The notes under the pieces: generated by a model | Told to the model about the DNA's origin: nothing | What the model saw: only the letters and a program-made list of their open reading frames with translations | The model's database searches: none | In this document: positions 10,290-55,200 of the stretch, piece by piece | How the letters are laid out: every line of letters begins with the position of its first letter | How positions within the stretch are numbered: the first letter of the stretch is position 1 | Program-made: the position numbers and the translations under genes | Assembly: GCA_963663865.1 (NCBI GenBank) | Contig: OY760686.1 | Span: 3,088,590-3,152,589, forward strand | DNA: 64,000 nucleotides | Direction: 5' to 3' | Source: Spirochaetota bacterium | GTDB lineage: Bacteria; Spirochaetota; UBA4802; UBA5550

Positions 10290-10886
10290 ATGAAACTGGT
10301 CAACTCAGTATTTTTAATCTGCATAATATCAGCCGCAGCGTACGGACAGGCAACCGGCCCCCGCACACCTGCTGCTATCCCCGATGGTTACGGGAGCATA
10401 AAATGGGGCACCCCGCTCAGCAAGGCAAGGGAGGCTATTTCCGGGAAGCTGTACTACACGGACGACAAAACAGTAATCGTTTCAAAGGACGACGCGCTTG
10501 AGTACTATTACGGCTTTTTCTATACCGACCCGGCAAATACAGAAAAAGCTGTAGAAACAGCTGATGCCGGACAGGAGGCTGTCGATGAAGGCACGCTATA
10601 CTACGTTGCCCTCAAGTTCCCGTATCTTCGCCTTAATCAGGTCAGAGAAAAAATTGAGTCCAAATACGGCAAATCATCGCTCGAAAACATCAAAAAAAAC
10701 CGGGGTGCTGCAGCCTGGATGTCAGACAGTACTATTATTATCATGTGGGCAGATGAATACGAGGGAGAGCCTTTCTGCAGGCGGATCACCTATCTCTCGA
10801 GAGAAACAGCTAAAAAAGTCAACACCAACCAGGAGCGGGTATTCAACAAAACAGAAATAGATATTCTGAAAAAGCTGAATCCCTGA
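10290..10886 (+). CDS. secreted hypothetical protein
   Basis: N-terminal signal peptide MKLVNSVFLICIISAAAYGQ; no family recognised. Confidence 0.5.
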   Translation: MKLVNSVFLICIISAAAYGQATGPRTPAAIPDGYGSIKWGTPLSKAREAISGKLYYTDDKTVIVSKDDALEYYYGFFYTDPANTEKAVETADAGQEAVDEGTLYYVALKFPYLRLNQVREKIESKYGKSSLENIKKNRGAAAWMSDSTIIIMWADEYEGEPFCRRITYLSRETAKKVNTNQERVFNKTEIDILKKLNP

Positions 10887-10902: not shown

Positions 10903-13900
10903 TTATAGATGTGTGATAAAAACCGGAATTAGTCCAATGCCCTCATCAATCCTGTCGAGGGCTTTTCCAATCACAGTGCCTATTTTATCAAACGAGTCAA
11001 TCTTTCCCCTGATGCCGCAGCCGGGAGTATCAGACGTCACAATGAGATCTCCTGGATTTACTGGTCCCTTCCTCGCGTCCACCTTGCACATGACCCTCCC
11101 CGCAAGAGCCACAGGATATGCCTTCTGCTCATCACCGGAGTTGTTGATTACAAGCATGGGATTTCCGGCTACAATACCGACAACAGACTGTGAGTAGGGC
11201 GCCGAAGAGCGCTTTAACGCCGATTTCCCTGAATCCGAAACGACAAGCAGGTCGCCCGGTGATATATACTCAGTTTCTTCAACAACGAACATCTCTACTA
11301 TGCTTGCCGGATATTGCCCCTTTCCGTCTCCTGTTATTTTTACCTGCCCATCGAAGACAGATCTTCCATTAACAAGAAGGGCATCGCCGTTACCCGCAAG
11401 ATTAACGCTTTTATCGTAGTCGGAAAGCCTTCCGAAGCCGTCGGCAACCAGGGAAAAACCGTGCTCACTGGAAAAAACTCCGCCCGCACCGAACCTTGAC
11501 AGACCGAGAACGCCGCAGCCGGAAACACCGTTTTCTCCACCAGCAGACTGCCCCCTTACACCAACAAAACCTCCGTGCCCCACTACACCGTAGCTCTGAA
11601 CAGTTTTCGTGCTGAGAATGCCTGCCACACCGGCTACCCCGATAGAACCTGCTTCTTTAGAGGCATTTTGCCCATATATTACGGCTGAGCCGTCAGACGG
11701 CGGCGTAATATCCGGAAATGCTTCATTCCTTTCCTGCTTGATGCTGATTGTTCCCGAATGGCTTTTAAACTCATGAAGCAGGGGAGCATAGTCATGGGTA
11801 TGTTCGAGTGGTTCCCTCCGGTCATAAAGCCTGGGGTCATTCCCCTGGACGGCGGTTCCCTCCTTGTTTTCACCCTGCTGTGCAAGCCTTACAATTCCGG
11901 GCGTTTTTTCCGTCGCGGGTTTCAGTCTTCTGTCGCTACCCTGAACAGCAACTCCTTTCTTCTCCTCGCCATCCTCGCCGAGTTCAACTATCCCCCTTGA
12001 AATAGTAGTAGCCTCTTTCAGACGGCGGTCATTTCCCTGTACGACAACACCGGCCGCGTCCTCTCCGTCCTCTGCAAGCTCAACTATTCCCGGCGACAGA
12101 GTTGAGGCTTTACGAAGCCTTTTGTCGCTTCCCTGAACAGCTGCAAATGGTGAAGAATCCCCATCAGAAGCGAATCTCATTATACCGGCAGAATCTTCTG
12201 TTGCGTCCTTAAGTCTTTTATCATTGCCCTGGACAACCACTCCCGGTCTGTCCTCTCCATCCTCTGCCAGTTCCACAATCCCTCTGGAACCAGTCGTAGC
12301 ATCCCTCAATCGGCGGTCATTGCCCTGTACAACAACACCGGCCGCGTCCTCTCCGTCCTCGGCAAGCTCGACTATTCCGGGAGATAATGTGGTTGAGGGC
12401 CTGAGTCTTTTGTCGCTTGCCTGAACTGCTGTTAAGGGCTTTTCGGTCCCGTCAGGGGCAAACTGCATAATTCCCTTAAAGGTCTCTGACGCGTCCTTTA
12501 ATCGACGATCGTTTCCCTGAACAACAACGCCGGCCGCGTCTTCACCGTCCTCAGCAAGCTCGACTATTCCCCTGGAACCCGTAGTAGCGTCCTTCAATCG
12601 GCGGTCATTGCCCTGTACAACAACGCCGGCCGCGTCCTCTCCGTCCTCAGCAAGCTCGACTATTCCCCTGGAACCCGTCGTGGCGTCTTTCAATCGGCGG
12701 TCATTGCCCTGTACAACAACGCCGGCCGCGTCCTCTCCGTCCTCAGCAAGCTCGACAATTCCCCTGGAACCCGTCGTGGCGTCTTTCAATCGGCGGTCAT
12801 TGCCCTGTATAGCTACACCTTCAGAGCTTTCTCCATCTTCAGCGAGCTCAACAATTCCCTTGAAAGCTGTTGACGCATCGCGAAGTCTCCTGTCATCGGC
12901 CTGTACAACACATCCTATTGTGTTTTCACCGTTTTTCGCGAGTTTTACAATACCGAAGCTGCTGTCCGTTGCCTTTTGAATCCTGCTGTCATTTCCGGTG
13001 ATGACAGCGCTCCCGGTATACAGGCCGTCCGGGCAGAGCTTTACGATTCCAAAAGTCGAATCGGTCGCTTCAGAAAGCCTTGAATCAGAGCCCTGTACAG
13101 CGGTTCCGGGCTGGGTCTCTCTGTCATAGGCAAGCCTTACAATGCCATTCTTTTCCTCAGTTGCGGGCTTGAGCCTTGAATCCGAACCCTGTACGGCTAT
13201 ACCGGCTGAGTTATCTCCGTCCTCTGCGAGCTGTACTATTCCCTTAAATATCGTTGTAGCATCACAAAGCCTTCTGTCGCTTCCCTGCACTGCCGTTCCC
13301 GGCGAATCTCCCCCATCGGCCGCCAGCTTAACGATGCCGGCCTGAAAGGTTGAAGCATATTGCGGCATTCCTGAAGCGTTGTGAGCGTGCGAATAGTCAA
13401 ACAAAGCAGCGAATATTTCTAAGGACGCCAGTTCAATCGAGAAACCACCAGCGGTATCCTTAGCTCCTCTTCCCTCAAACCTTATGTATCGGACAGGGCA
13501 TATTTCCATATTCCAGGAATATCTCTTCATCGGCTCCGCTTTGAATGATTTTTCCTCAAAAAGCGGAAGGAACAATTCCCCGTCTGTGCTGATATCGACG
13601 TTGAATTTTTCTGGGAAAAGCCCCGAAGAAGCCCCAATAATTATTCTGTTAACGTGATACACCGCGCCAAGATCAATGAGCAGTGTTTCCAGGCCGCTTT
13701 TACCTCTTGAGGGCGACCGCCAGACAAGGTCATGCGCTCCCCTGAACAGATTTTCAGCAGAAGTTTCGGCCGAGGCCGAATCAGCGGTCACTGCCGCAAC
13801 CCCCGATATCCCCCCCGAAAAAGATGCAATTTTACAAACAGCCTTTCCGTCTTCACGGGCATTGAGCCCCGTCACGTATAGCTTATAAAACCTGTACTGC

Positions 13901-14244
13901 ACCGGCGGAAGCGGAAGAATATAGGGACTTCCGCTGCATCTGTATGCAGACTCTGATTTAAGAACATGCCACAGACTGCCATCGGTACTCGCTTCTATTC
14001 TGAAGTCGCGCGGAAAAGACTTCTCTTCGGATGGGACCGGAGCGATCTCTATGCTGTCTATTACAGGCGAATCCTTAAGATCAATAACCACGTATTCAGG
14101 CCTGCCGTCAAAGCCCTCTGAAGTCTGCCAGAATCCGCCCTCTTTCAACAGATTGCCCGCGGAATGAGCCGCATCCGACTCGGACGAGAAGGAGTGTATT
14201 GATGACTGATACTTCTGAGCTCTGCTTATGTTTATAAATTTCAT
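10903..14244 (-). CDS. large repeat protein: two discoidin (F5/8 type C)-like domains + about 16 phage-tail-fibre-like 32-aa repeats + Gly-rich C-terminal domain; no signal peptide
   Basis: 1113 aa single ORF. Discoidin-like segments EYVVIDLKDSPVIDSIEIAPV... and LLIDLGAVYHVNRIIIG.... Repeats of form ATTGSRGIVELAEDGEDAAGVVVQGNDRRLKD resemble the ATxxxxGIVxLAT..E tail-fibre repeat. Confidence 0.8.
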   Translation of the reverse strand: MKFINISRAQKYQSSIHSFSSESDAAHSAGNLLKEGGFWQTSEGFDGRPEYVVIDLKDSPVIDSIEIAPVPSEEKSFPRDFRIEASTDGSLWHVLKSESAYRCSGSPYILPLPPVQYRFYKLYVTGLNAREDGKAVCKIASFSGGISGVAAVTADSASAETSAENLFRGAHDLVWRSPSRGKSGLETLLIDLGAVYHVNRIIIGASSGLFPEKFNVDISTDGELFLPLFEEKSFKAEPMKRYSWNMEICPVRYIRFEGRGAKDTAGGFSIELASLEIFAALFDYSHAHNASGMPQYASTFQAGIVKLAADGGDSPGTAVQGSDRRLCDATTIFKGIVQLAEDGDNSAGIAVQGSDSRLKPATEEKNGIVRLAYDRETQPGTAVQGSDSRLSEATDSTFGIVKLCPDGLYTGSAVITGNDSRIQKATDSSFGIVKLAKNGENTIGCVVQADDRRLRDASTAFKGIVELAEDGESSEGVAIQGNDRRLKDATTGSRGIVELAEDGEDAAGVVVQGNDRRLKDATTGSRGIVELAEDGEDAAGVVVQGNDRRLKDATTGSRGIVELAEDGEDAAGVVVQGNDRRLKDASETFKGIMQFAPDGTEKPLTAVQASDKRLRPSTTLSPGIVELAEDGEDAAGVVVQGNDRRLRDATTGSRGIVELAEDGEDRPGVVVQGNDKRLKDATEDSAGIMRFASDGDSSPFAAVQGSDKRLRKASTLSPGIVELAEDGEDAAGVVVQGNDRRLKEATTISRGIVELGEDGEEKKGVAVQGSDRRLKPATEKTPGIVRLAQQGENKEGTAVQGNDPRLYDRREPLEHTHDYAPLLHEFKSHSGTISIKQERNEAFPDITPPSDGSAVIYGQNASKEAGSIGVAGVAGILSTKTVQSYGVVGHGGFVGVRGQSAGGENGVSGCGVLGLSRFGAGGVFSSEHGFSLVADGFGRLSDYDKSVNLAGNGDALLVNGRSVFDGQVKITGDGKGQYPASIVEMFVVEETEYISPGDLLVVSDSGKSALKRSSAPYSQSVVGIVAGNPMLVINNSGDEQKAYPVALAGRVMCKVDARKGPVNPGDLIVTSDTPGCGIRGKIDSFDKIGTVIGKALDRIDEGIGLIPVFITHL
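11800..13360 (-). repeat. tandem array of about 16 x 96-bp coding repeats (core of near-identical units 12440-12830)
   Basis: Directly visible; consecutive 96-bp units e.g. 12596-12691 and 12692-12787 differ by only a few bases. Confidence 0.85.
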
Positions 14245-15017: not shown

Positions 15018-15367
15018 GGGGACGATTTTGGTTTCGACTGCAATTGCTGGTCTTCAGTGGCATGCCGAGTATCCTGTCTTCTCGTAAAAAATGGCAGGAA
15101 TGATTTAACTGCAAACGACAACTTTGCACTAGCGGCTTAATCCCCGCTACGTCTCCGAAGGCTCCTGTCCTCTGGGATCTTCACGAGGCGTCATAATCAG
15201 AGGATAGCCAATGAACAGTCTCCCGGGTTCAGAGGTGAAATTTAAGGGAGAACGGCATGCAGGACGGTGCCTTTCCCGGCCCGCATACTGTAACAAAAGA
15301 ACAGGCTAAGCATGTAGAAGCTGTGGATTTGGATTGTAGGACGCGGGTTCGACTCCCGCCGTCTCCA
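15018..15367 (+). ncRNA. ssrA: tmRNA (transfer-messenger RNA), tag peptide ANDNFALAA
   Basis: 5' GGGGACGATTTTGGTTTCGAC and 3' GGACGCGGGTTCGACTCCCGCCGTCTCCA match conserved tmRNA acceptor/T-arm ends; internal reading frame GCAAACGACAACTTTGCACTAGCGGCTTAA gives ANDNFALAA then stop. Confidence 0.85.
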
Positions 15368-15379
15368 AGACTTAACTCC

Positions 15380-16021
15380 CTATTCCTCAAGAAATCCGGC
15401 TATATCCATAGTATCGGCAAACCTTCCGCCAACACGGCTAAGCAGGATTTTTTTTACTGAATCAGGAATGATTTCCTGGACATCCCTTGTTTCATTTTGT
15501 CTGTCCATGTAGATAATGTTGAGCTCAGAGTCAACTGCTACAAACATGCTGTACATATCAATGTATTGAAGTTCGGGAGAATAGAAACCGTCCACCTCAT
15601 AGATGACAAGAGCGTCGAGACCGCTGTCTGCCATGACTTTCATAAGAGCTTCGCGGTTCATTCTTAAAAAAAGATTAATAACACCTGTTGTTTTAAATTT
15701 CAAAAAGGATTTATTCTCAGAGTACTGGCAGAATTTTCCAAAAACAGCGTCGTACGAATAAACCGCTTCGGTCAGATTTTTGTCCTCAAGAAAGACAAAG
15801 GGCCTGCTCTCGCGGTATGCTCCCGCCCACTTCTGAAGCGAAAGCATTAGCTCCTCGCGCGGAAGCATTGTGCTTGCGGGGGTTCTCAATATTACACCGG
15901 CCTTGCTCACTGAAGAGAGCTTTGCCGAATCAGACAGCTCCTTCTTCACCCCGTAAGACGAACAACCGGCAGCAACCGAGAAAAGCACCGATACTATAAA
16001 TAATCGAAATAATGTTTTCAT
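15380..16021 (-). CDS. putative lipoprotein
   Basis: Signal peptide MKTLFRLFIVSVLFSVAAGCSS with lipobox. Confidence 0.5.
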   Translation of the reverse strand: MKTLFRLFIVSVLFSVAAGCSSYGVKKELSDSAKLSSVSKAGVILRTPASTMLPREELMLSLQKWAGAYRESRPFVFLEDKNLTEAVYSYDAVFGKFCQYSENKSFLKFKTTGVINLFLRMNREALMKVMADSGLDALVIYEVDGFYSPELQYIDMYSMFVAVDSELNIIYMDRQNETRDVQEIIPDSVKKILLSRVGGRFADTMDIAGFLEE

Positions 16022-16040
16022 TGTTTATTCCCTCTAATTT

Positions 16041-16841
16041 TCAATCAAGGAGGCCGAACACCTGTGGCGCTGCGTCCGTAAGGGCCCATGCGACAGGCTC
16101 ACTGGAAACACCGCCGTAATAATCGACCATGTTAAAATGCCCGAGCCAGGTTAAAAGATAAAAATCGATAAATGACGCAAAGAACAGGTCATTTTTTCTT
16201 GCAACGCCAGTCAACTCACTGAAATCGTTAGCTACCTCCTGAACCTGCGCTTTTTTTCTTCTGAGAAGCACATCCCTGAATATTGAGCGGTCCCGCTGCA
16301 GAAGTTCAGCCAGCTCATGGTCTGAAGGGAACAGCTCTTTCCATTCAACATCATTCCAGAAGGTTCTCATCAGTCTGCAATAGAGCAGACGCCGGTCGCC
16401 TTCAACACCGGAAACCTTCACTCGCCCCTTCGATTTCTCAATCAGGCCGCAGACCTTCATTATCATTGCCATCTGCCTGAGATATATATCGGCGAGGCAA
16501 TGGTCGATTTTTTCATGAGAAGAACACTGGCTGATAAAACTGTCGGCTGAAATACTGTAGTATTCATCCGGCAGAAGACATCCCCTGTCATGCGAACACT
16601 CCCTGCCGTCAGCAGTTGCCGCAATAAAACTACAGAGCCTTACGGCCAAGCAGTTCTCCGCTTCCGCCGGAGCCGAGTCCCGGTCTGAAACGATATAGGC
16701 GTGGTAGGAGGAAGCTGCGTCAAAACGCTCCATCACTGACGGCACAGCCGACTGCGACGGATAACAGGCAGAAAAATCCACTCCCGCGGTAAAAAAAGAC
16801 ATTTTTTTTCTTTTTGCTGTGATGTAGCCGTTATCTGACAT
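16041..16841 (-). CDS. hypothetical protein
   Basis: 266 aa ORF, Cys/His-rich central region, no family recognised. Confidence 0.45.
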   Translation of the reverse strand: MSDNGYITAKRKKMSFFTAGVDFSACYPSQSAVPSVMERFDAASSYHAYIVSDRDSAPAEAENCLAVRLCSFIAATADGRECSHDRGCLLPDEYYSISADSFISQCSSHEKIDHCLADIYLRQMAMIMKVCGLIEKSKGRVKVSGVEGDRRLLYCRLMRTFWNDVEWKELFPSDHELAELLQRDRSIFRDVLLRRKKAQVQEVANDFSELTGVARKNDLFFASFIDFYLLTWLGHFNMVDYYGGVSSEPVAWALTDAAPQVFGLLD

Positions 16842-17213
16842 TCAACCTTCCGCCGTTAAAAACCGAACATAATTATACAATGCGACAGGGAAGCGTCCGC
16901 CCTGCTATCGTGCAAGTCTGAAGCTTTCGCAACACTATACGAATTAATTAATTTAGTAAATTAATTTTTTATTTCTGACAAAATAATTTGCATATTTACT
17001 ATTAATCCTATTAATTCGATTACCATTAAACTTCCGGCGCTGCCTTTCCACTGCTGTGGATTAATAAAAAAAATTCAGACATCCCTAACAGCCTTGATCG
17101 CATGCGGTACAGGCTGAACGATATCTGAATCCGATTTACTTCAAACAGTACTATCACTGCACGTCTTAACTGTCTTGTTGATCAACGCCTATGAGTCAAC
17201 CAAATTTCTCCGC

Positions 17214-17921
17214 TTAACCCAACAATGCTGAAACCGCATCTCGCTGTATGTTCCCCTGCGTGGCAAGTGCGTTTGCAGGTGAACCGCCGATTGCAGCGCC
17301 TACAGCAGAAGCGGCCTCATAGGGGTTCTCAACATCTACGTTATAGGTCTCAACAGCTGAGGTCATAACAGCGGCCGCCTCTCCAGCCGCTGCCTCATAG
17401 GCGGAGTAGGTATCACCCAGACTGGACTCCAGATCAGCAAAAAACTCCGGGTTTGGCCTTTCGCCTGCCGCAAGTCCCGATGCCCCGAAACGCAGCGACA
17501 CAATGGCTGCTTCAGGTGAAGGTATATCGAAGCTCACCGATGCTGCCGCCGGCGACAAAGCAGGTATAACTATGGAGGTTCTTAACTCCGGAAGGTTCTC
17601 GGGAAGCTGGCTCGACGCCTCAGCAACCGCAGCAGAATCAAGCCTGCCCGTTCTTACAGCGTCAGCGGCTGCATTCTTCAGCTGTGAAGAAACCACTATA
17701 GCCCTCTGTACAATGCTCATGGAGGCCTGCGCGACACTGAGCGCCTCGCCTAAAGCCCTCTCAACAGAAAGCCTTGAAAGGATTGCCTGATTATAATCCC
17801 GCCCATTACCAGCCGAATCAGGCCCGACTGCAGCTGAAGCCGCGCTGGAACGTACAGGAGTTCTCGGACTGTTCAAAGCCCTCCGGGCAGAAACATCGCC
17901 AATATCCGTATTGATCTTCAT
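17214..17921 (-). CDS. Ala-rich protein with flagellin-like N- and C-termini (degenerate flagellin-like)
   Basis: N-terminus MKINTDIG resembles the flagellin MxINTN start. A.LSVAQASMSIVQRA resembles the end of the flagellin N-domain. C-terminal ...GNIQRDAVSALLG resembles the flagellin C-terminus. Only 235 aa. Confidence 0.45.
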   Translation of the reverse strand: MKINTDIGDVSARRALNSPRTPVRSSAASAAVGPDSAGNGRDYNQAILSRLSVERALGEALSVAQASMSIVQRAIVVSSQLKNAAADAVRTGRLDSAAVAEASSQLPENLPELRTSIVIPALSPAAASVSFDIPSPEAAIVSLRFGASGLAAGERPNPEFFADLESSLGDTYSAYEAAAGEAAAVMTSAVETYNVDVENPYEAASAVGAAIGGSPANALATQGNIQRDAVSALLG

Positions 17922-18001
17922 GTTACCCTCCCTGTGCCCGTAATAATAATAAGAACTGAAAATGCCAATGTCAAACTGAAATTTTCAGCTTTTTCGATTG
18001 C

Positions 18002-19582
18002 TCAGAAATTACAGCTTGCGCCGGCGTCAAAACGCCTGTCGTAAACACCTTTGCTGCTGTAAACCAGCTCTGCCCTGAGATTGCATGACAGAGAAGAATT
18101 GGCTTCGAGCACTATAAGGATTGCATTGATATTAAGAGCTTTTCTGAACATGCTTCCAGTGCTGACTGACCCGGCAAAGGGCGCCGGATTGAGAAATACA
18201 GGGTTATGGGCAGATGCTTCGACTCTGATATAGTCAAACCTCATTCGGACAAGCTCCGGTTCCGTCCACTTGAGCGCGCACCCTGCTGACCAGGCTGCCT
18301 CCGCCCCTCTCCTCTTCTGAAGGGATGAGCTCATTAACACGGACAGCCCCCGGCGGAAAAGCGCCGATCCTGAGAGCTTGAACTGATGTGAGACTGCCAG
18401 CCCATCCCCGTCAGTCACCAGGTGAACATATTTCATCTTCGCTGAAAATGATTCAGATTTGCGCTCAAGGAATGCCTCTTCCCGATGAGCAGAACGCAGA
18501 TATGCTGATTGCCCTGATGCGGAATTGTTTACTTCAGCTGAAGAACTCAGCCCGGCATTGAGTTTTCTCGAAAGCTTAAGAAGCAATGCCCCTTCATATC
18601 TCGCTGAGGGGGCGCCCGGATCGCTGCTGACGGGAGCGAAAAAGCCCTGCCTCATCCCTTCACCAGAGACGGACAACGTATAAAAGCCCGGGCTGATTAC
18701 AAGTCCCCCGGAAAACCCCAGGCTGTCCGAGCGTCCGGCGGCGCCTGACTCCTGCAGACGAAAGGCACATCCGGCCTCAAACCATGCGGTAAATGTTTTG
18801 TCGCTGTACCCGGCAAAGAGGCTTTCTCCTCCATAGCCCCAGTGAGCAGCGCTGCCGTCTCCGCTCCCGACTTGCATTTTTCTCATCGTGTAATCGAAAA
18901 CGCCTCCTCTCAGAAAGCACAGCTGAATAGAAAAGTTTTTTAAATACAACAGGGCCAGAACTATACCTGAGTCCAACAGCATGACCGGCTCAGTGTACTT
19001 TTCTGAGGGATTAAGCTTCGTATTGATACCCGATATTGATACGGTGGTACGCCCGCTGTCAAAGTCACCGCCGGGGAAATAGCGCCTCCTGCATGAAATA
19101 AATGGGTACAGGGCTATTCTGTTCTCATCTGTCCCGAACGAGATCCCGGCGGCAGCCCCGGCCATCAAATAGAGAGGATTAGCGGTGGCCGGGGCTGCGA
19201 TCACTGCAGAGCGGCCCGCCCTCCTGCGGGGCGAAAAAGCGTCAGCGCTGAAAAAGCTGCGTTTCCCGAGGATGAGCCCTGTTCCGGAGGAAACCGTGTA
19301 TCCGCCAAGAGCGATCTCAAAGCCGGGCAGCGCATCCCCCAGATAGAGGCTCCCCGCCCATGTCCTGTCAGCTTCTGAAGGGACATCGGCATAACCCGCG
19401 CTGAAATGCGAATCCTCCGATAGATTGAGCTTTACCAGAGACCTGAAATACTCCTTCTCTGACGCATCGTAATCTACATAGTCTCTCCTGAACTCCGTTT
19501 TAATGAGATACTCGGGATACCGCTCAGCCTCAGCACCTGCGGCTGCCAGAATAAGCGCTGCTGTTACAGATAGGAGGAACAC
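18002..19582 (-). CDS. putative outer-membrane beta-barrel protein
   Basis: Signal peptide, alternating amphipathic pattern, C-terminal Phe (ASCNF); 19-bp overlap with upstream gene. Confidence 0.5.
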   Translation of the reverse strand: MFLLSVTAALILAAAGAEAERYPEYLIKTEFRRDYVDYDASEKEYFRSLVKLNLSEDSHFSAGYADVPSEADRTWAGSLYLGDALPGFEIALGGYTVSSGTGLILGKRSFFSADAFSPRRRAGRSAVIAAPATANPLYLMAGAAAGISFGTDENRIALYPFISCRRRYFPGGDFDSGRTTVSISGINTKLNPSEKYTEPVMLLDSGIVLALLYLKNFSIQLCFLRGGVFDYTMRKMQVGSGDGSAAHWGYGGESLFAGYSDKTFTAWFEAGCAFRLQESGAAGRSDSLGFSGGLVISPGFYTLSVSGEGMRQGFFAPVSSDPGAPSARYEGALLLKLSRKLNAGLSSSAEVNNSASGQSAYLRSAHREEAFLERKSESFSAKMKYVHLVTDGDGLAVSHQFKLSGSALFRRGLSVLMSSSLQKRRGAEAAWSAGCALKWTEPELVRMRFDYIRVEASAHNPVFLNPAPFAGSVSTGSMFRKALNINAILIVLEANSSLSCNLRAELVYSSKGVYDRRFDAGASCNF

Positions 19583-20847
19583 AGATTTAACACCTTCTCC
19601 TTGACAGCTCCTTTGAGCCCGAGCTCATTCAGGCCGTTCCTCCTCTGCACCCGGGTTTTCCTCTGAAGTATATCAATAACCTCAAGCGCGTTGACAGGGT
19701 TAAGCCCGGCATTGAGCAGACCGGAAAAGAGCGAGCTCTTCTGATGCCCTGTCATCTCGCTTCGCCCGCTTTTTCTAAAGCTGCGACGCTTTTCACGCTC
19801 CGGCTTACGCTCCTTCTCAAAACCATAAGCATGGTTATAGAGAACGCCGATATCCCCCCCGTCCATGCCAAGCTGAATGAGAGCATCTTCACTGACAGGG
19901 CCTATCAGCCGCCTGTATTTGATTAGCCTCTCCCTGAAAAGCACCGGAACCGCTTCCATCCCCATTATCTCTTCATCGGAGCATGTCCGTATATCAACCT
20001 TCCGGGGCAGCTCTGCGTCCAGCTCTGTATTGAGCCCTGAATAGCTTAGTGAATCAAAGCTCCCGCCGCCGAAGCGGAGTGAAACACCGGCCGTATGCGT
20101 GCTTCCAAGATAGGGGTGCCTGAGCAGTGAATATGTAAAGGAAAGACTCGAGACGTTAACCTCAACTCCCAGGCCGTAGGACAATGTCTCCCTGGAATAT
20201 CCGGCCCTGAGCAGTATGTACTGCTGAATACGTACTGAGACTGTAAAGGTGTTGATATAGCCGTAAGCTGACGATGTGATGTTATACGAGGCGGCGAGGC
20301 CCTTAACCGGAACAAATGACGCGCCCGCGCTCCATTCCGGGGAGAGCAGAGAGCTTCCCTGGAAGGAACGAATGTTCTCACATGCCCCGGCAAGCACCAG
20401 CCTTCTTGACAGCGGGATATTGACGTAAGCGCTCAGGTCAGCCTCTCCCTCCAGGCCTCCATCCTCAAATTTCACCCAGGAATACCCCGCGCTTAGCCCG
20501 GCCGCCAAAAAACCGGCCGGCCGGAATCCCGCGCCGATGGAAATCTCATTTTCACGGTACCCTTCGGCTCCGAAGTTTTCCCACGAAAACAGAAAACCCG
20601 CTCCGGAAACCGGAAAGAGCGCCTGCATGTTTCCGCATAAAAGCCCTGTGCCGGTGTAAGGGCGCCCCCCTGCCATGCTGATGCGGGGCCCGGGCAGTCC
20701 CGCGCTGTACGAGGTATTGAGCACCGCTGATCCCGAGAATCCCTCTGAGGCGGCTACGGTATACGGGAACATGCCTTCAAAACAGGCAGGCCTGTACTCA
20801 AAGGCCGTCACGAGTGCGGCCGCCAGAACAAGCATGGAGACACTCAT
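19564..20847 (-). CDS. putative outer-membrane protein with C-terminal ComEA-like helix-hairpin-helix domain
   Basis: Start set at MSVSMLVLAAALVTA signal peptide; its ATG overlaps the upstream gene stop as ATGA. C-terminal VDIRTCSDEEIMGMEAVPVLFRERLIKYRRLIGPVSEDALIQLGMDGGDIG aligns by eye with the ComEA competence-protein helix-hairpin-helix domain. Confidence 0.5.
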   Translation of the reverse strand: MSVSMLVLAAALVTAFEYRPACFEGMFPYTVAASEGFSGSAVLNTSYSAGLPGPRISMAGGRPYTGTGLLCGNMQALFPVSGAGFLFSWENFGAEGYRENEISIGAGFRPAGFLAAGLSAGYSWVKFEDGGLEGEADLSAYVNIPLSRRLVLAGACENIRSFQGSSLLSPEWSAGASFVPVKGLAASYNITSSAYGYINTFTVSVRIQQYILLRAGYSRETLSYGLGVEVNVSSLSFTYSLLRHPYLGSTHTAGVSLRFGGGSFDSLSYSGLNTELDAELPRKVDIRTCSDEEIMGMEAVPVLFRERLIKYRRLIGPVSEDALIQLGMDGGDIGVLYNHAYGFEKERKPEREKRRSFRKSGRSEMTGHQKSSLFSGLLNAGLNPVNALEVIDILQRKTRVQRRNGLNELGLKGAVKEKVLNLCSSYL

Positions 20848-21857
20848 CTTTTCCGCCCGAGTACGATGAGAAACTTCTTCCTCTGGGCCCTTTTCCGCTC
20901 CCGGGATACAGCCTCTACCAGCACGGGATATATCCCGGCCGGCAGGGTCGCCACCGAAGGGCTCTCCCAGTAGAGACTGAAATATCCGGGGGCAATATCC
21001 CTGGCAAGGTCCGTGGAATAGAGCATCACTCCAGTCGATGAAAACACCCTCAATCTGAGGCTGCATTCCTCATTCACGAAGAGAGGCACCTCGACAGATG
21101 CGGTTGCCGCGTCCCTTCGCACGTTGATTCTGCCTTTTCTAAGCTTAAAAACATCTCCAGCTGGTTCTCCGGAGCTGATTATGTTTTCCCTGCCCGGTGT
21201 CTGAAACCTGGTTACGGCAAAATCAGCAGAGCTGTTGCAATCGGGAACCGGCAGGCGTGAAACAGAAAAGTGCCCCTTCAGGCCGTTAGCCCCTATATCA
21301 ATGCTGCTCTTCTGGACATCATCCGCTGCAGTCCATTGACCCGCGGCCGAGGCGCAGCGGATATAGCCTGTAACTGCTTTATTGGGAGTTCCGTCCATGT
21401 TTGAATACGCCGCAAAATCAATGATTCCGCCGTTTTCCGGATCGTCATCAGTATCTATAGAAACAACACCTTCCGAATTCCATAGAGCAGCAGAGTAGTT
21501 GGAACAGCTGACTTCCAGAATACCGTTTCCATTAATGTCGCCGCTCAGATCCGATTCAGTCGCTGAGGCGCCCTCGTGCATATAAACTACTATGAACCTG
21601 TCGTCCCAGGGTGTGTCCGGGCTGTCCTCACTGCGGATAGTGACTGGTTCCAGCGACAGCCGCATATTGCTGCCGTAGTAGCAGGTCACGAAGAGCGGAG
21701 AAACATCCATGCTCTCCCCCGGCCCGCCGGAAAAGCAAAGTTCAACCCAGTCGTTTTCCGTATTTGTTACGAACTCGTTGATTGACAGACCCGCCAGCGC
21801 TTCTTCACTGAAACAGACACACAGGACAAGGGCGATAAGGAGCAGTTTTGTTTTCAT
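20844..21857 (-). CDS. secreted lamin-tail-domain (LTD) protein with C-terminal Ig-like region
   Basis: Signal peptide; LSINEFVTNTENDWVELCFSG matches the LTD INE...DWVEL signature. Confidence 0.6.
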   Translation of the reverse strand: MKTKLLLIALVLCVCFSEEALAGLSINEFVTNTENDWVELCFSGGPGESMDVSPLFVTCYYGSNMRLSLEPVTIRSEDSPDTPWDDRFIVVYMHEGASATESDLSGDINGNGILEVSCSNYSAALWNSEGVVSIDTDDDPENGGIIDFAAYSNMDGTPNKAVTGYIRCASAAGQWTAADDVQKSSIDIGANGLKGHFSVSRLPVPDCNSSADFAVTRFQTPGRENIISSGEPAGDVFKLRKGRINVRRDAATASVEVPLFVNEECSLRLRVFSSTGVMLYSTDLARDIAPGYFSLYWESPSVATLPAGIYPVLVEAVSRERKRAQRKKFLIVLGRKR

Positions 21858-21944
21858 GACGCCTCCGTCAGTTAAACGGCCGGCGGAAGGCAGGAATAAA
21901 ATTTAAAAAAATAACTCGACATACTTCATGCCGGGTTTCTTCTG

Positions 21945-23093
21945 GTGCAAACGCCTAAAAAGTGTAATGGGATGAGCGGAAAGACAAAGACATTCATGGG
22001 TTCGAAGATTAGTCCGAGATATCTCGGCGCATTTGCTTCAGGAATCAGGGATATTATCGCGTCGTCAGACGACCGAAACCAGGCCCTGGCCCGCGTGTCC
22101 TCAGTCTCAGTTGAGGCCTTCGGACGCGAAATCAGCCCCACAGTTCTTGAAAAGCCGGACAGGCTTTCCATATCGTTCCTTGAACTGCTTGACCAGATCG
22201 TTTTTGAGATCAACGAAAATCAAAGCGATTCCGAAACAATAAAGGACTACATCGCCGAGAACCTCTTCAAAAGAGTGACTATCTTCAGCGAAGCGATGAC
22301 GGAAATCTCCGCTTACAGCAGGAGCCTGCAGTCCAGGCCGCTCAGCGTTGATGACACCCTCATAATATCACACTTCCGAATGAATGAATTTGTGCCGGAG
22401 CTGATTAACGAGTTTGCCGAAAACCCCGCGCTTCAGAAACACATTCTCAGAGCGCTGCTCCGTTTTAATCCTGATGAAACTGTATCCTTCATGTCAGAAA
22501 TAGCCTCAGGACCCTACTGCCCTGAGGCCCGGGCGACCGCGCTTGCTTCGCTGAAAAAGTCCTCCGCTGGAACGGAGATTCTCGCGTCCCTCGAAGAAAA
22601 CGGGAAGTCCTCGCTGCTCCGTTACGCTTCCCTTTTTAATGCCGCCAATATCCCCGGGAATATAAAGCCGTACACTCCTGAAACCTGCGCGTTCGCGTCA
22701 TATCTGATTGAAGCCGACAGCGCACTCATAAATGACATTCCGTCTCTCATCTGGTTTTGCGGGATTTTCGAGTCGTTCCCGGACGCGCCGGGAAACAGCG
22801 AGAACCCGAAATACTCGGGAATTTTCCGGGCCCTGACTCATGTCCTCGTTGAGCTTCCCCGAACGCTCCTCAAGGACGCAGTCAAGTCAGACATCGCGCT
22901 AACCGCGCTCACCTCCTTTATTGACTCGCTTCCGAGATCAGTATTCAGCAGAATAGCCGTAGCCCTTGACCCGCTGGGCAGCTCCTTTCATGACCCGGTA
23001 GGCGCTCTTGTCGAAAGCGGCAAAATAGTTTTGGACGGCCCGTCTTCCAACACGCTCAGCTACCTCATGCGTGACACCGCTTCCGCTTTTTAA
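21945..23093 (+). CDS. hypothetical protein (alpha-helical)
   Basis: 382 aa ORF; no family recognised. Confidence 0.45.
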   Translation: MQTPKKCNGMSGKTKTFMGSKISPRYLGAFASGIRDIIASSDDRNQALARVSSVSVEAFGREISPTVLEKPDRLSISFLELLDQIVFEINENQSDSETIKDYIAENLFKRVTIFSEAMTEISAYSRSLQSRPLSVDDTLIISHFRMNEFVPELINEFAENPALQKHILRALLRFNPDETVSFMSEIASGPYCPEARATALASLKKSSAGTEILASLEENGKSSLLRYASLFNAANIPGNIKPYTPETCAFASYLIEADSALINDIPSLIWFCGIFESFPDAPGNSENPKYSGIFRALTHVLVELPRTLLKDAVKSDIALTALTSFIDSLPRSVFSRIAVALDPLGSSFHDPVGALVESGKIVLDGPSSNTLSYLMRDTASAF

Positions 23094-23096
23094 TTC

Positions 23097-24743
23097 TTAA
23101 TCCCTTATATCAGCTTCGCCGCCGGCGCCCTCAACCTGGTCAACCCTGACCTTGACGAACCAGACCGGAGGCTTGCCCGCGCCGTGTGACATGTAGTAGC
23201 TTCTTTTCTTTACAGCCCTTGTAAAATCCGTTTTTATTATTCCGGGGATATCGGCTGCAGGAACATCAACGATCACCGGAACGGGGGCAATGCCGTACAT
23301 ACCCGCGGGATCATCTCTGAAATAGAACCCTGCGTAGATGTAGGCGCCTTCCCTTGCCCTCAGTGACGACAGCATCTTCGGTGTAGGAATCATTACCCGG
23401 AACGAAACCCTGCCGTCCGTAAGAAGCGCGCTTCCGGCTGCAGCCTGGCCCCTGCCGGCCTGTCCAAAGGCCCCGGTCACAATTTCCTTCAGATTGGTAA
23501 GCAATGGCCCCTTTTTTATAACCCGCCGGCCGGTCTGCTTCTCAAAGAGCTCCGGAAGGCTGTAAGGCCCGGCCGCCTCAGACCTCATCTCGCTCAGCGG
23601 CTCGAGCGCCTTTCCCATAGACGGATTGTATCTGTCGGGAACATATACTCCCCCTCTCCAGGAGGATGCAGGCCTTTCCGATCTGAATGCCCTGCCGTTC
23701 TGGAAGTATAGATACACCGGGCTTCCTGTTTCGGTGAAGGCCTTCTGGCTGTAGACGGCATAGATGTTTTTGCCGCGCGCTGACGCTGCAACCCTTTCGG
23801 GTATCTCGGCCCTGCTTCCAGTAAGGCTGCCCAGTGAAACTGCCCGCAGAGCGATGCCCTTCCCGGCGGCGCGGGCGGCCTCCTGTTCCGGGAAGCGGGC
23901 AGAGGGCATCTCCGAGTTTGTTATCAGAACAATGTGCTTAGCTGAACCTTTCCGCCATCGTACATTTCCGACCGCGTACCTGAGAGCAGAGACAAACGAA
24001 GAGGCGTCTGGCTTTCCGGATGGCTTCATGCCGGCAAGGGCCTGTCTGAGGGCGTGAAGAGTCGTATATGTCTTCACACCCGTGATATTTATGTTTTTCC
24101 CGGAAAAGGGAATCAACGTTACGCGGCAATCCATTCTGCGGGCATCTATTAAATCCGAAGCTGACGCAATCACAGCGGCCCTGACATCGCCCCACTCGCA
24201 GGAGATGTTCCATGAAAGATCAAGCAGAAAGGCAACGTCCGCGCTTCCGGCGTCATACCCTCGTTTTACAGCTGGATATGCCGTGAAGGCTTCGCGCACC
24301 TCGTTTTCGGCCAGCTCGAAGATATCTGAACCCGCTGAACTGATTCTGCTGAGCACACGCTTTTCTGGCACCGAATAGAGCACGCTCACAGACTCATATC
24401 CGCCGCGGGTTTTGTAGAGAGTTCCTGCGAGAACTGTGTCGATATATTTCCCCGCTGTCAATGCCTGAAGGTCATCAGAGGACAGCTTCTTTGCCGGATC
24501 AATCTTCAGTCTCTCCATGTCGAGTTCAATATCGCGTGAGGAGGTTACTCTGACATCGCGTGAAAGTAAAGCAGTAAGAGCAACCAGCCTTGCGAAATCC
24601 CGGGCTGTTTCTGCCGTAAGCTTTTCTGACGGATTCCCCGCCCTGTAGGGCAGCACAGCAGTCTCGGCAAAAAGGGCATGTGAGCCTAACACAAGAATCA
24701 AAGCTAATAAAACTGTTAGTCTCTTCATATTACTTAACATCAC
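23097..24743 (-). CDS. secreted von Willebrand factor A (vWA)-like domain protein
   Basis: Signal peptide; central VAFLLDLSWNIS...HIVLITNSE resembles vWA MIDAS/beta-strand pattern. Confidence 0.5.
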   Translation of the reverse strand: MMLSNMKRLTVLLALILVLGSHALFAETAVLPYRAGNPSEKLTAETARDFARLVALTALLSRDVRVTSSRDIELDMERLKIDPAKKLSSDDLQALTAGKYIDTVLAGTLYKTRGGYESVSVLYSVPEKRVLSRISSAGSDIFELAENEVREAFTAYPAVKRGYDAGSADVAFLLDLSWNISCEWGDVRAAVIASASDLIDARRMDCRVTLIPFSGKNINITGVKTYTTLHALRQALAGMKPSGKPDASSFVSALRYAVGNVRWRKGSAKHIVLITNSEMPSARFPEQEAARAAGKGIALRAVSLGSLTGSRAEIPERVAASARGKNIYAVYSQKAFTETGSPVYLYFQNGRAFRSERPASSWRGGVYVPDRYNPSMGKALEPLSEMRSEAAGPYSLPELFEKQTGRRVIKKGPLLTNLKEIVTGAFGQAGRGQAAAGSALLTDGRVSFRVMIPTPKMLSSLRAREGAYIYAGFYFRDDPAGMYGIAPVPVIVDVPAADIPGIIKTDFTRAVKKRSYYMSHGAGKPPVWFVKVRVDQVEGAGGEADIRD

Positions 24744-28995: not shown

Positions 28996-29628
28996 GTGAA
29001 CCTGTACAAAAACAAATACCGAGCAGAATCAGCGCGCCTGAAGGCATGGGACTATTCATCTAACGGTAGATATTATATTACGATTTGCGTGAATAATCAC
29101 GAATGTGTCTTCGGATATATTACAGCCAGAAAAATGGTCCTCTCGAATCTCGGAAAAAATGCAGAATCTTGTTGGCGTGAGATTCCTCATCATTTCCCAT
29201 TTGTGAAATTGGATGAATATGTTGTCATGCCAAATCATATACACGGCATCATCGTTATTGAAAAAACCGTGAAACACCGGAAACACGGGGAATCCGCGAA
29301 ACACGGGGAATCCGTAGAGACGCAAAATCTTGCGTCTCTACAATCGAACGTGTCGGAATCAAACGTGCCACCGTCGAACGTGTCGGTATCGAACATGCCA
29401 CCGTCGAATTTCGGCCCCCAATCAAAAAATATTGCATCGATCATACGCGGTTTTAAAATCGGTGTTACAAAATATGCGGTGAATAACAACATTCCATTTA
29501 AATGGCAACCCCGGTTTCATGATCACATCATACGCGATGAAAATGATTTAAACCGCATCCGCAAGTATATAATGAATAATCCATTAAATTGGGGACCACC
29601 CTCACGGCAGGGGAATATTTTCTCTTGA
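28996..29628 (+). CDS. IS200/IS605-type Y1 (HuH) transposase, REP-associated tyrosine transposase-like, with internal low-complexity repeat insertion
   Basis: HuH motif MPNHIHGIIVI, catalytic Tyr motif RKYIMNNPLNW, WQPRFHDHIIRDE signature; the segment between these motifs is encoded by direct repeats plus a palindrome. Confidence 0.7.
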   Translation: MNLYKNKYRAESARLKAWDYSSNGRYYITICVNNHECVFGYITARKMVLSNLGKNAESCWREIPHHFPFVKLDEYVVMPNHIHGIIVIEKTVKHRKHGESAKHGESVETQNLASLQSNVSESNVPPSNVSVSNMPPSNFGPQSKNIASIIRGFKIGVTKYAVNNNIPFKWQPRFHDHIIRDENDLNRIRKYIMNNPLNWGPPSRQGNIFS

Positions 29629-31598: not shown

Positions 31599-32402
31599 AT
31601 GAATCTGCTAAGACAAAGCTTTGCCCCCATCAGTGAAAGCGGATGGGATGAAATAAACGGTCTCGCAAAAGAGACGCTGACTGCCAACCTTTCAGCGAGA
31701 AGATTCTGCGATGTTGAAGGCCCGTTTGGAATCAACTATACCGGCGTCAACCTCGGAAGGCTTGAAGTCCCTCAGGGCCAGAAGAAGGACGCTGTCCAGT
31801 ATGGAATCAACAGGGTGCTTCCTCTTGTAGAAGCCAGGGTGAGCTTCTCAGTAAATATCTGGGAACTCGACAATGTGGAACGCGGAGCGAAGGACATTGA
31901 ACTTGATGCCGTAGTTGAAGCGGCAAAGAAGATGGCCGCCTTTGAGGAAAGCGCCGTATACAACGGCCTTCCTGAAGCCGGCATTGAAGGACTTAACGGC
32001 TCAGCTGACGCTTCAAGGACAGTTGAGATGTCCCTCGAGAAGGACAGCGTCATTGACTCCATCAGCGAAGGACTCAGAATTATGCGAAGCAGCGGAATTG
32101 ACTCCGAGGCTAACCTTATTGTTAACCCGGAACTGTGGAAGTTTCAGGCGCGGATGTTCCCAGGCGGGAACCTCGGTGCTTCAATTAAAAAGCAAATTGG
32201 CGGTTCGATAATCTATTCCGATACTGTTAAGGGCGCGCTGCTTGTTTCAAACCGCGATGGCGACTTTGAACTCACAATCGGACAGGACTTTTCAGTAGGC
32301 TACCACAGCCACGATTCAGAGAAGGTCAACCTCTTCCTGAGCGAATCCTTCACTTTCAGAATAATAACGCCCGAAGCGCTTGTGGCATTTAAAATCAAGT
32401 AA
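31599..32402 (+). CDS. family 1 encapsulin shell protein (HK97 fold, linocin/CFP29-like)
   Basis: Strong similarity, aligned from memory, to Thermotoga maritima encapsulin (RSFAPLTE..W.EID, VDVEGP, LDNLERG, VSERGGDF.L..GQD..IGY, PEAL); 16 bp after cargo gene. Confidence 0.85.
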   Translation: MNLLRQSFAPISESGWDEINGLAKETLTANLSARRFCDVEGPFGINYTGVNLGRLEVPQGQKKDAVQYGINRVLPLVEARVSFSVNIWELDNVERGAKDIELDAVVEAAKKMAAFEESAVYNGLPEAGIEGLNGSADASRTVEMSLEKDSVIDSISEGLRIMRSSGIDSEANLIVNPELWKFQARMFPGGNLGASIKKQIGGSIIYSDTVKGALLVSNRDGDFELTIGQDFSVGYHSHDSEKVNLFLSESFTFRIITPEALVAFKIK

Positions 32403-52527: not shown

Positions 52528-54240
52528 TCAAGGAGCTTTTGCACTATTTTCTGATATGATTTCAGTGCCAGCATATGGCCTTGCTGATTTCCTGTCAGAG
52601 AGTTTTGACTCGTGATTATACGGTGTTCCGGGTCGATATGTGTCGTAGGCGCTGACAGCAAAATAATAAAGCACTGTGTTCCTGAGCAATGGATAGGCCA
52701 GTAAACCCCGACTGTCTGCCCTTAGATTCTCTTCAATAACACGGTTGTCAAGCGACAGGTAGATATAATCTCCCTTTTGATAGGTATTATCAATCTTCTT
52801 TCCGTTTGCGAATGTGATAATCCCCTCATATCTGTCCGTTGATGTGCTGTAGTAAAGCCTGTAGCCCCCGATATCATAGTCAGTATTCTTTTTCCAGCGC
52901 AGTAAAACATTTTCATCACCGGCGGAAACAACCTCAAAAAACATCGGCGCCCCCGGCGGTAAATCCGGCTGGTACTTAAGCCTTATGTTTGACAGCTCGG
53001 GCGCACTTTTTCCGTCGGGTGAAACAGCAAGATTTGCTCTCCACTGATAATATCGTCCCCTCAGAGGTTTTTTATCCTCCCCAACCGTTTTAAAAATCTC
53101 TTTCTGACTGTTGGAGATACGGTACCACCTGGGTTGATTGTCTTTCTCAGCGAACAGGCTGTCTGATGTGCGAAATTCCATCCAGATAAAGGTTCCATCC
53201 GGTAATTTCTCATCCCAATCAAAAGAGACGACCCTGGTTCCAAAGTCATTAAATGAATATACCGGGCTTGTTACGGTTCCGCCGGCATTTTTGGGCTCCC
53301 TGCCATTTAGTTTCCGTGGAGCAAAAGCTGTTGTTTTTATCTGATATCTTTCTGCTGAAACAGCAAGAGGCTGAAGGCTTATTTTCAACTCATCAATAAG
53401 ACCGCAAAACCCCCTGCCGATTATAGCCGGAGGAAAATCTCTGTTGATAACAGCCTGATCTGATACAACTCCAAATCTCGGCGTGTAAGGCGCGGTGTCA
53501 GGTGTGCCGTCCGCAGTTAAATATTGAGTTTCCTGTTCTTTCCCGTCAAGGTACGAAGACAGCCTTCCGTCAGACCGGTCAAAACTCAAAACATAATGGT
53601 ACCATTTATCCGCATGAATCGAAGTGACTCCGTGATGCTCTACATTCTTTTTAAATCCGCTTTTATCCTCAAATATACCATAAAAACCGCTAAATACTCT
53701 ACCTCTGTGGAGCTTAATTTCTATCCCCTGAATACTTCCGTTTAGTGATCCAAGACGTGAAAAGATAACCGCGCCATCCCGGATAGTACTCGGATTAATT
53801 CTAAATTCTACAGTGAAAGACCCAAGATCGCCTGAATTGCCAAGCCACAGGCTTGCCTCGGGCTTTAGTACAACTTCATGATCGTCTCTATAGAAAAGTG
53901 CACATCCGCTGCCATGGGCCCCCTTTGCCTTCGTAAAACTGTATTCCGCCGATAGTACCTGATATCGTGATGTATCATCATGATGCAACGTGACAGGCTC
54001 CCCGTCAAAGGACAGTGACATATCAAGAACGCCCGATTCATACTGCTTTCCATAAGATATATCAGAAACAGTATATCGGACAGAATCGCTTTGGCCTCCT
54101 GCAGCCTGAATCCCGTTGAGACCGCTCTGAGGGACCCGGGCGAAGTGAACTGTGCAGGCTTTCCCATCCTCCGCAGCAGGATAAAGGGGAGACGCGAAAG
54201 GCATACCCCATAGTATAATAAGTATTAAAACCCTGCGCAT
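52528..54240 (-). CDS. secreted protein with concanavalin/LamG-like jelly-roll and FN3-like regions
   Basis: Start set at MRRVLILIILWGMPFASPL (signal peptide) to avoid overlap with rpiB; beta-rich, weak LamG-like pattern. Confidence 0.45.
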   Translation of the reverse strand: MRRVLILIILWGMPFASPLYPAAEDGKACTVHFARVPQSGLNGIQAAGGQSDSVRYTVSDISYGKQYESGVLDMSLSFDGEPVTLHHDDTSRYQVLSAEYSFTKAKGAHGSGCALFYRDDHEVVLKPEASLWLGNSGDLGSFTVEFRINPSTIRDGAVIFSRLGSLNGSIQGIEIKLHRGRVFSGFYGIFEDKSGFKKNVEHHGVTSIHADKWYHYVLSFDRSDGRLSSYLDGKEQETQYLTADGTPDTAPYTPRFGVVSDQAVINRDFPPAIIGRGFCGLIDELKISLQPLAVSAERYQIKTTAFAPRKLNGREPKNAGGTVTSPVYSFNDFGTRVVSFDWDEKLPDGTFIWMEFRTSDSLFAEKDNQPRWYRISNSQKEIFKTVGEDKKPLRGRYYQWRANLAVSPDGKSAPELSNIRLKYQPDLPPGAPMFFEVVSAGDENVLLRWKKNTDYDIGGYRLYYSTSTDRYEGIITFANGKKIDNTYQKGDYIYLSLDNRVIEENLRADSRGLLAYPLLRNTVLYYFAVSAYDTYRPGTPYNHESKLSDRKSARPYAGTEIISENSAKAP

Positions 54241-54253
54241 TTTATCTCCTGAA

Positions 54254-55159: not shown

Positions 55160-55200
55160 TTGTTGATAATGTTGATAACTTTGTTGATAAGTTGATAAGT
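55160..55200. repeat. four tandem TTGATAA / TTATCAAC(A/T) repeats (DnaA-box-like), a fifth copy at 54915-54923
   Basis: gattgttgataatgttgataactttgttgataagttgataag read directly; reverse complement gives TTATCAACA x3 and TTATCAACT, one mismatch from TTATCCACA. Confidence 0.6.

Follow-up and report, generated by a model that had tools for sequence, protein, structure and literature searches.

When genes for fibre and surface proteins contain tandem coding repeats, these are usually seen as engines of variation, and the locus described here raises the question of whether such an array changes its unit number in the organism that carries it. It lies in a stretch of 64,000 nt from an uncultured, Leptospirales-like Spirochaetota bacterium (contig OY760686.1, positions 3,088,590 to 3,152,589 of the forward strand; hereafter the window), inside a gene for a fibre-like protein of 1113 aa taken from the list of open reading frames (ORFs) and its translation (10903-14244, minus strand, stop codon at 10903-10905). 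An earlier note, made from the sequence alone, had described the array as a likely hypervariable and recombination-prone locus. The balance that we found is the opposite one: the locus is recombination-capable rather than hypervariable, and the number of units is constrained at 16 in this clade. We consider it probable that the gene codes for a chromosomal fibre protein with a shaft of 16 units, of which the central ones recombine with each other and the number is held by selection, the array being here a stable functional part of the gene.

The array and its near-identical center

Units were delimited by anchoring on a G-I-V-x-L motif that recurs in the translation of ORF 10903-14244. This gave 16 gapless, in-phase units of 32 aa (11803-13338, minus strand, aa 303-814), and the limits of 11800 to 13360 proposed before were thus accurate. 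In the family consensus the central units read GIVELAEDGEDxpGVAVQGNDRRLKDATTssK, with the strongest conservation at G1, Q18, D21 and R23, which vary little or not at all in nearly all units. A single 32-aa phase is kept in every homologue, and 16 in-phase units kept in hundreds of homologues are far beyond chance.

Tandem Repeats Finder reported a period of 96 at 12491-12809 (3.3 copies, 94% matches, no indels, score 547), together with overlapping rows of period 192 and 288. From this output and from difference maps, we delimited a homogenised tract (12491-12809, minus strand) that takes in the 3' half of unit 6, spans units 7 and 8, and ends two thirds into unit 9. The longest exact period-96 match (68 bp, starting at 12593) falls within it. 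In the register of the earlier note, the pair 12596-12691 and 12692-12787 differs at 1 of 96 nt, while in codon register units 7 and 8 differ at 4 of 96, all synonymous. The other adjacent pairs in the former register are much further apart, with 10 and 27 nt for the neighbours and 36-58 nt for the remainder. The claim that consecutive units differ by 0-4 nt therefore stands for one adjacent pair (1-4 nt) and fails for the next (10) and the others (27-58), only about 3.3 units being near-identical. That more diverged units flank them was correct, as the approximately 12 units outside the tract differ at 27-58 of 96 nt. Non-adjacent units 11 and 14 group with units 7 and 8 (7-15 differences).

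Superimposed on the single unit is a three-unit (288-bp) periodicity (11963-12667, minus strand), seen both as the period-288 row (2.4 copies, 77% matches) and in the unit difference matrix, where units 10 and 13 are of a “GIMxFA” type and units 8, 11 and 14 are alike. The F-type signature is found at positions 10 and 13 throughout the family, and the period-288 signal is a three-unit pattern of older date. We also looked at GC-biased conversion; the GC content of units 7 and 8 is somewhat raised, and GC at third codon positions is the same over the whole array as in the flanks. An antisense ORF of 123 aa (12608-12979, plus strand) lies opposite the repeats and is most likely a by-product of stop-poor repetitive sequence, not a gene.

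Two strains with the same number of units

Over 23,342 nt the window matches an ENA contig of 429,589 bp (ctg38309l) at 100% identity. It extends past the end of that contig and must therefore belong to another one, that of 3.16 Mb on which the same protein is encoded; the protein was found in identical form (P0001) on two contigs. The same sample also contains a sister strain (ctg38462l, 1.39 Mb) whose gene shows 65 differences over 3342 nt (1.9%), no indel and 16 units, and whose flank is 97.7% identical. Copy number had been expected to vary in the species itself, but the three contigs of the two strains all have 16 units. The 25 single-nucleotide polymorphisms (SNPs) of the array are evenly spread, and in the sister strain units 7 and 8 are still 4 sites apart.

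Divergence between the strains, calculated by the NG86 method, gave a synonymous divergence (dS) of 0.073 and a ratio of nonsynonymous (dN) to synonymous divergence of 0.05. Between units 7 and 8, dS is 0.18 and dN is 0. Since the two units are further apart than the two strains, the last homogenisation (units 6-9, ca. 320 bp) is older than the strain split, and from then on the array has been under purifying selection. The 68-bp exact match is longer than the junctions of 44-62 bp at which deletions have occurred in relatives (see below), so the substrate is present, but no deletion is recorded in the lineage of the window. In seven of the eight strain SNPs that fall in units 7, 8, 9 and 11 (12283-12762), both alleles are found at the same offset in a paralogous unit, something to be expected fairly often at synonymous sites of repeats that share an amino-acid constraint. 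These SNPs could be short gene-conversion tracts or reflect limited synonymous choices. Among JGI metagenome contigs, scanned with close relatives in mind, there were no further strains, only a distant relative of the C-terminal part (L087), whose ORFs had no PHROG match.

Unit number across the family

The family to which the protein belongs is uncharacterised and annotated only as “discoidin domain-containing protein.” It is found widely in environmental Spirochaetota and combines phage fibre parts and sugar-binding heads with no known export route. We found 383 relatives at E <= 1e-5, the best 120 being 47-62% identical; the few of these 120 with a named source all come from Spirochaetota or Spirochaetes. 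A relative is encoded by 214 species-representative genomes, and the 80 loci listed among these all belong to uncultured spirochaete-type genomes or unnamed bins. The unit counts refer to the best 120 of the 383 proteins, and the genome loci to 80 of the 214.

Among the 120 proteins, 83 have 16 units, and the rest have 15 (18 proteins), 14 (13), 13 (5) or 12 (1). In the 64 complete species-representative genes the picture is similar, with 16 units in 42, 15 in nine, 14 in three, 8-12 in eight, and 18 and 20 in one each. On contigs longer than 500 kb, 10 of 11 genes have 16 units and the other has 14 (685-kb contig). With 16 as the mode in each of these sets, in a clade whose proteins are no more than 50-60% identical, the term “hypervariable” does not describe the array. 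The comparison of copy number among related genomes that the earlier note had suggested thus revealed differences in several related species and, at the same time, a constraint at 16. Several of the arrays with 9, 10, 12 or 20 units are real because they are made of distinct, non-identical units.

The array is not uniform in its evolution. Units 1-4, 10, 15 and 16 carry position-specific signatures that are common to the species, and units 6-9 and 11-14 follow one consensus. Losses appear to fall at positions 5-15, with one exception (P0046, 1109 aa) that is probably a counting artefact due to a missed anchor. More distant relatives with the same architecture (P0172-P0203, representatives of clusters at 50% identity) mostly have 7-8 units and a length of 770-870 aa. 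This sister group is much more diverse and shares the discoidin pair, the repeats and the same C terminus. Expansion of the central units may be how the 16-unit clade arose, and the placement of the 8-unit relatives onto the 16 positions is unreliable except for the last unit and one “LCP” unit.

Recombination and turnover in relatives

In the 41 species with 16 units, pairs of units that differ at no more than 10 of 96 nt were found solely among positions 6-14. Such pairs were present in 20 of the 41, in differing combinations, and the central units have been homogenised independently in the 20 species. Arrays on long contigs keep 16 units even where their exact repeats are very long, as in L023 (221 bp) and L022 (151 bp).

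Changes in number could be followed in groups of genes with 99.5% identity or more in both the N- and the C-terminal domains. Such groups contain, for example, 18, 15, 13 and 12 units in one case, 16, 15 and 13 in another, and 16 and 14, 16 and 13, or 16 and 15 in others. Each variant is a clean, in-register deletion or duplication and has a chimeric unit at the junction; length thus changes in whole units, the 32-aa steps that had been predicted. Comparison of the DNA itself was possible for three pairs of alleles. A 13-unit gene (L084) differs from a 16-unit one (L012) by a single SNP in ca. 10 kb and a 288-bp deletion with an identical junction of 52 bp. A 15-unit gene (L085) differs from L007 (16 units) within the gene by a 96-bp deletion alone, with a junction of 44 bp. 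The 15-unit genes L089-L092 lack 96 bp relative to L078 (16 units), with a junction of 62 bp, the only other difference in the gene being one SNP, and this allele is found in 10 contigs from several samples that differ from each other by SNPs. The proposal that recombination expands and contracts the array is therefore borne out by deletions of one or three units and by homogenised centers in relatives, and by no event in the lineage of the window.

Groups with the same flanks and 12 to 18 units in other species are what would be found at a true contingency-type locus, in which frequent unit change by slippage or RecA-mediated exchange would generate many fibre lengths within a population. The window itself, with its 68-bp exact match and ca. 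320 bp at 94% identity, longer than the junctions that sufficed in relatives, would offer the substrate. We still regard this as very unlikely. Strains separated by a dS of 0.07 share unit number and register, the second contig shows no difference over 23.3 kb, and dS between the closest units has already reached 0.18, with a dN of 0. The number of 16 is held across more than 40 species, and an in-frame unit of 96 bp cannot toggle the gene on and off.

The converse possibility is that the number is fixed in each lineage, with copy-neutral gene conversion as the only real process and the short alleles as artefacts of short-read assembly. In its favour, the counts other than 16 on identical flanks all come from short reads, 10 of the 11 genes on contigs of >500 kb have 16 units, and shorter variants are far more common than longer ones, as collapse predicts. 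It is nevertheless unlikely, if a little less so than contingency-type variation. The junctions of L085/L007 and L089-L092/L078 are shorter than the final k of MEGAHIT given in the contig names (k141, k127), and we judge these alleles to be real on this ground. The argument does not extend to L084/L012, which are SPAdes contigs with an unrecorded k; that pair rests on a clean 288-bp deletion in near-identical DNA. In addition, the 15-unit allele recurs in 10 contigs with different SNPs from several samples, arrays of 9, 10, 12 and 20 distinct units cannot be products of collapse, and the 14-unit gene sits on a 685-kb contig.

Assembly does suffer at this locus. Of the 80 species-representative contigs, 11 begin in or near the array (L050, L052, L054, L059, L060, L062, L069, L073, L075, L076 and L079), seven of them at query residues 295-297, at the first unit, and runs of N inside it were found in three (L030, L061 and L068). 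In one lineage an identical unit is present 2, 5 or 6 times depending on the assembly, and L018 contains an exact duplication of 395 bp; both are probably limited by assembly. The array is a systematic break point of short-read metagenome assembly and, in practical terms, a source of miscounted units. These breaks, N runs and assembly-dependent counts could suggest that the array of the window was itself collapsed or expanded, so that 16 would not be its true number. This seems extremely improbable to us, as adjacent units are at least 1-4 nt apart, the longest exact repeat is 68 bp, two contigs agree over 23,342 nt, the sister-strain contig also has 16 units, and 16 is the mode of the family. 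The names of the contigs (ctg...l) and their sizes (0.43, 1.39 and 3.16 Mb) also suggest a long-read assembly. The warning that the array is a likely site of assembly collapse thus applies to the relatives much more than to the window.

Architecture of the fibre-like protein

The N-terminal region (13339-14244, minus strand, aa 1-302) consists of two discoidin domains (F5/8 type C, CBM32-like). Pfam PF00754 matches two stretches well above its curated threshold (72.4 bits versus a cut-off of 28.2, E = 4.9e-20), and the pair is modelled by AlphaFold with a predicted local distance difference test score (pLDDT) of 80-93. Foldseek aligned the pair to tandem discoidin/CBM32 structures at E of ca. 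1e-13 (neuropilin b1b2 and ZmpB CBM32-1/2) and to single CBM32 modules with template modelling (TM) scores of 0.73-0.77, consistent with a beta-sandwich fold. A role in sugar binding or adhesion is predicted from these domains. Immediately before the shaft there is an H-x-H motif (aa 286-288, 13381-13389), whose two histidines, H286 and H288, are kept in 90% or more of the sequences.

The shaft repeats match PHROG tail-fibre profiles (phrog_910, E = 6.5e-13; phrog_1197, E = 1.2e-8; phrog_972, E = 1.5e-5; and phrog_2952). The AlphaFold monomer has two short strands and one helical turn per unit, and no solved structure in the PDB matched the repeat by sequence comparison. The shafts of phage tail fibres (PHROG 910, “tail collar fiber protein”; 972, “tail fiber protein proximal subunit”; 1197 and 2952) are built from short, beta-rich repeats of the same G-I-V-x-L-A type, and H-x-H motifs flank the shaft of the window protein. 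In solved phage fibres, H-x-H motifs hold a metal on the trimer axis. Unlike those shafts, the gene described here lies outside phage or tail clusters, keeps a strictly gapless 32-aa period 16 times over and has sugar-binding domains at the N terminus.

Two other matches to the repeats were set aside. BurrH (TALE-like, PDB 4cj9) has 33-aa repeats with a shared I-V-x-I-A...G-G...A-V pattern and gave a profile match of E = 1e-11. Its repeats are helical and those of the window protein are modelled as strand-strand-turn, the confidence of the alignment is low, and an insertion is needed in every repeat; for this last reason, and because of the modelled fold, we dismissed the match as a coincidence of periodicity. 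Matches to tandem-fused TRAP (MtrB) chains, at E of ca. 1e-3, look like noise from repeats and composition.

After the shaft comes a region (11320-11802, minus strand, aa 815-975) that starts with an H-x-H-x-Y motif, followed by a glycine-rich stretch. The motif, HTHDY, is invariant (11788-11802, H815/H817), as are the columns of H824 and H829, and the pLDDT of the region is mostly below 50. The protein ends in a beta domain (10906-11319, minus strand, aa 976-1113) that is confidently modelled (pLDDT 84-97) and resembles the phi29 gp12 auto-chaperone (Peptidase_G2). Its Foldseek matches in the PDB fall between 1e-4 and 1e-3 and include phi29 gp12 (3gqh, E = 9.2e-4, TM(target) 0.56; 3suc, E = 1.1e-3), phi29 gp8.5 (6qyy) and phage capsid decoration proteins. 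Matches in BFVD reach E = 3e-13 and include tail and tail-fibre proteins, as well as a “preneck appendage protein barrel” (E of ca. 1e-10, TM(target) 0.66). The earlier identification of the product as a fibre-type protein was thus supported by both the repeats and the C terminus.

By sequence, PF11962 is touched below threshold by 17 of 41 family members (best E = 6.7e-5) and is a precomputed label on two fragments of the family. When PDB sequences were searched with the C-terminal part, the single-sequence query had no match, and the profile gave just an insignificant one, to ankyrin. When we searched a set of 5.8 billion proteins with this domain, the hits were almost solely fragments of the same fibre family. 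The last ca. 140 aa are similar in fold to the C-terminal domain of the pre-neck appendage of the Bacillus phage (gp12; PF11962, 3gqh/3suc), in which an enzymatic beta-helix takes the place of the repeat shaft. A weak hhalign alignment (16%) sets the family motif N-I-V-E-x-F-E on D-F-A-E-Y-F-E, the region of the S691/D692 cleavage site of gp12. In the window protein the motif reads S-I-V-E-M-F-V, with no Pfam match, and its first six residues, SIVEMF (11287-11304, minus strand, aa 981-986), form a putative cleavage-site-like motif, with E984 and F986 present in 90% or more of the family. Self-cleavage of the C-terminal domain is predicted from this resemblance.

A chromosomal setting for a gene with phage-fibre-like parts

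The 10 neighbouring ORFs matched no PHROG family, the other ORFs of the window that were scanned had no phage-type match in Pfam, and the identifiable neighbours are thioredoxin, HtrA, PBP1A, CarD and similar proteins. In eight other loci that we examined, the fibre gene was again amid housekeeping genes, and tblastn with the shaft as query had no match in 50,697 phage genomes. The gene is a vertically conserved chromosomal gene made of phage fibre parts, not a prophage fibre. Its product could still serve as tail fibre for a prophage or for some phage-derived particle (tailocin, contractile injection system or gene transfer agent) encoded elsewhere in the genome, given its phage-like repeats and C-terminal domain and its lack of a signal peptide, as in phage fibres. 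Fibre genes of some phage-derived particles do sit apart from the main cluster. We consider this quite unlikely, in view of the conserved chromosomal setting in all the loci examined, the absence of phage matches just described, and the location of the sugar-binding domains at the N terminus, where phage fibres usually attach.

A broader reading would be that a phage-derived fibre gene has turned into a cellular gene that a large clade of free-living spirochaetes inherits vertically and that codes for a trimeric, sugar-binding fibre whose shaft is a selected “ruler” (16 units, ca. 8 in sister clades) that remains constant despite conversion and recurrent deletions. We see this as a possibility and would, on balance, lean against it as a whole.

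The anatomy and family distribution that were observed, together with the deletion alleles and the constancy of the array in two strains, can be combined in a candidate mechanism for the narrower reading, that of a chromosomal fibre protein whose unit number is held by selection. The N-terminal pair of discoidin/CBM32 domains would bind sugars, the 16 units of 32 aa would form the shaft between the two H-x-H motifs, and the C-terminal domain, like the self-cleaving trimerisation chaperone of phi29 gp12, would assemble a homotrimeric fibre whose length would be set by the number of units. The end units (1-5, 15 and 16) are position-specific and orthologous from species to species, and the central units 6-14 are interchangeable copies of one consensus. 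Among these, gene conversion and unequal exchange or slippage would occasionally homogenise the sequence and occasionally delete or duplicate whole units, and selection would retain 16 units despite the concerted evolution of the center. Recombination acts on the array, and yet 16 units are kept across dozens of species and in co-occurring strains, so the length of the shaft is likely a selected trait.

Several points weigh against this reading. The species of the window is represented by only two strains, on three contigs of which two or more come from a single sample. Selection for 16 units, and for ca. 8 in the distant relatives, is suggested by the distribution of unit numbers. The deletion alleles all come from short-read metagenome assemblies and some could be assembly errors. 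For the predicted homotrimeric fibre, resemblance is the sole basis; the pLDDT of the shaft in the AlphaFold monomer is only 55-65, the protein of the window has no PF11962 match at E <= 1 and its C-terminal domain stays under every Pfam threshold, and hhalign gives the family a probability of only 16% against phi29 gp12. Finally, inspection of the N-terminal sequence found no hydrophobic signal sequence and no recognisable anchor.

Comparison with cellular fibres and repeat loci

The closest parallel in a cellular context may be sought in the MAT fibres of Bdellovibrio bacteriovorus, which are chromosomal, non-prophage, trimeric and tail-fibre-like, with variable adhesive domains and differing lengths, some of them ending in a self-cleaving chaperone (PMC10769870). 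The MAT proteins carry a signal peptide as well as a conserved N-terminal domain, use an S74 chaperone and form a family of 21 members (PMC10769870). None of the three features is found in the window protein, which is the product of one conserved gene rather than one of 21 members and has its sugar-binding domains at the N terminus.

With regard to the array, in-frame units, recombination between them, gain and loss of whole units and difficult assembly are shared with copy-variable coding repeat genes such as the repeat loci of Mycobacterium tuberculosis described as phase-variable (PMC12817950). Unlike in those genes, a mode of 16 is held here over deep divergence and between strains, and only part of the array is exchangeable.

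Neighbouring genes and other features of the window

Downstream of the fibre gene, and convergent with it, there is an ORF of 198 aa with a signal-like N terminus (10290-10886, plus strand), the stop codons of the two being 16 bp apart. All 7 loci compared have a homologue (35-52% identity, E <= 1e-46) immediately downstream in convergent orientation, and this ORF, which had no match in Pfam, PHROG or the PDB, may be a functional partner of the fibre protein. In most loci thioredoxin is found beyond it. Scans for promoters and terminators gave no more matches than in shuffled sequence.

On the other side, ca. 0.8 kb upstream of the fibre gene, is a transfer-messenger RNA (tmRNA) gene (15018-15368, plus strand; tag ANDNFALAA). 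A tmRNA was found 0.8-4.5 kb upstream in the window and in 5 of 12 loci scanned (L003, L006, L012, L023 and L088). In the sister strain (L088, 2070-5227), a 2.8-kb insertion coding for an alkaline phosphatase and a YibE_F protein, absent from the window, abuts the 3' end of the tmRNA, which looks like a classic island insertion site. In the window, the 3' side of the tmRNA is followed by seven ORFs in a row (15380-24743, 213-526 aa) that had no Pfam or PHROG match, and then by a VWA-domain protein with a weak LIC10012_N match. Further along there is a gene for an encapsulin shell (31599-32402, plus strand; Linocin_M18, E = 2.7e-77) and, ca. 2 kb upstream of it, tandem repeats of 15-30 bp (29280-29408) inside an ORF without family match (28996-29628). 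The last part of the window (54001-64000) has a GC content of 0.37-0.40, compared to 0.41-0.55 elsewhere, and the ORFs scanned there belong to ordinary cellular families (PEP carboxykinase, HDOD and DnaJ).

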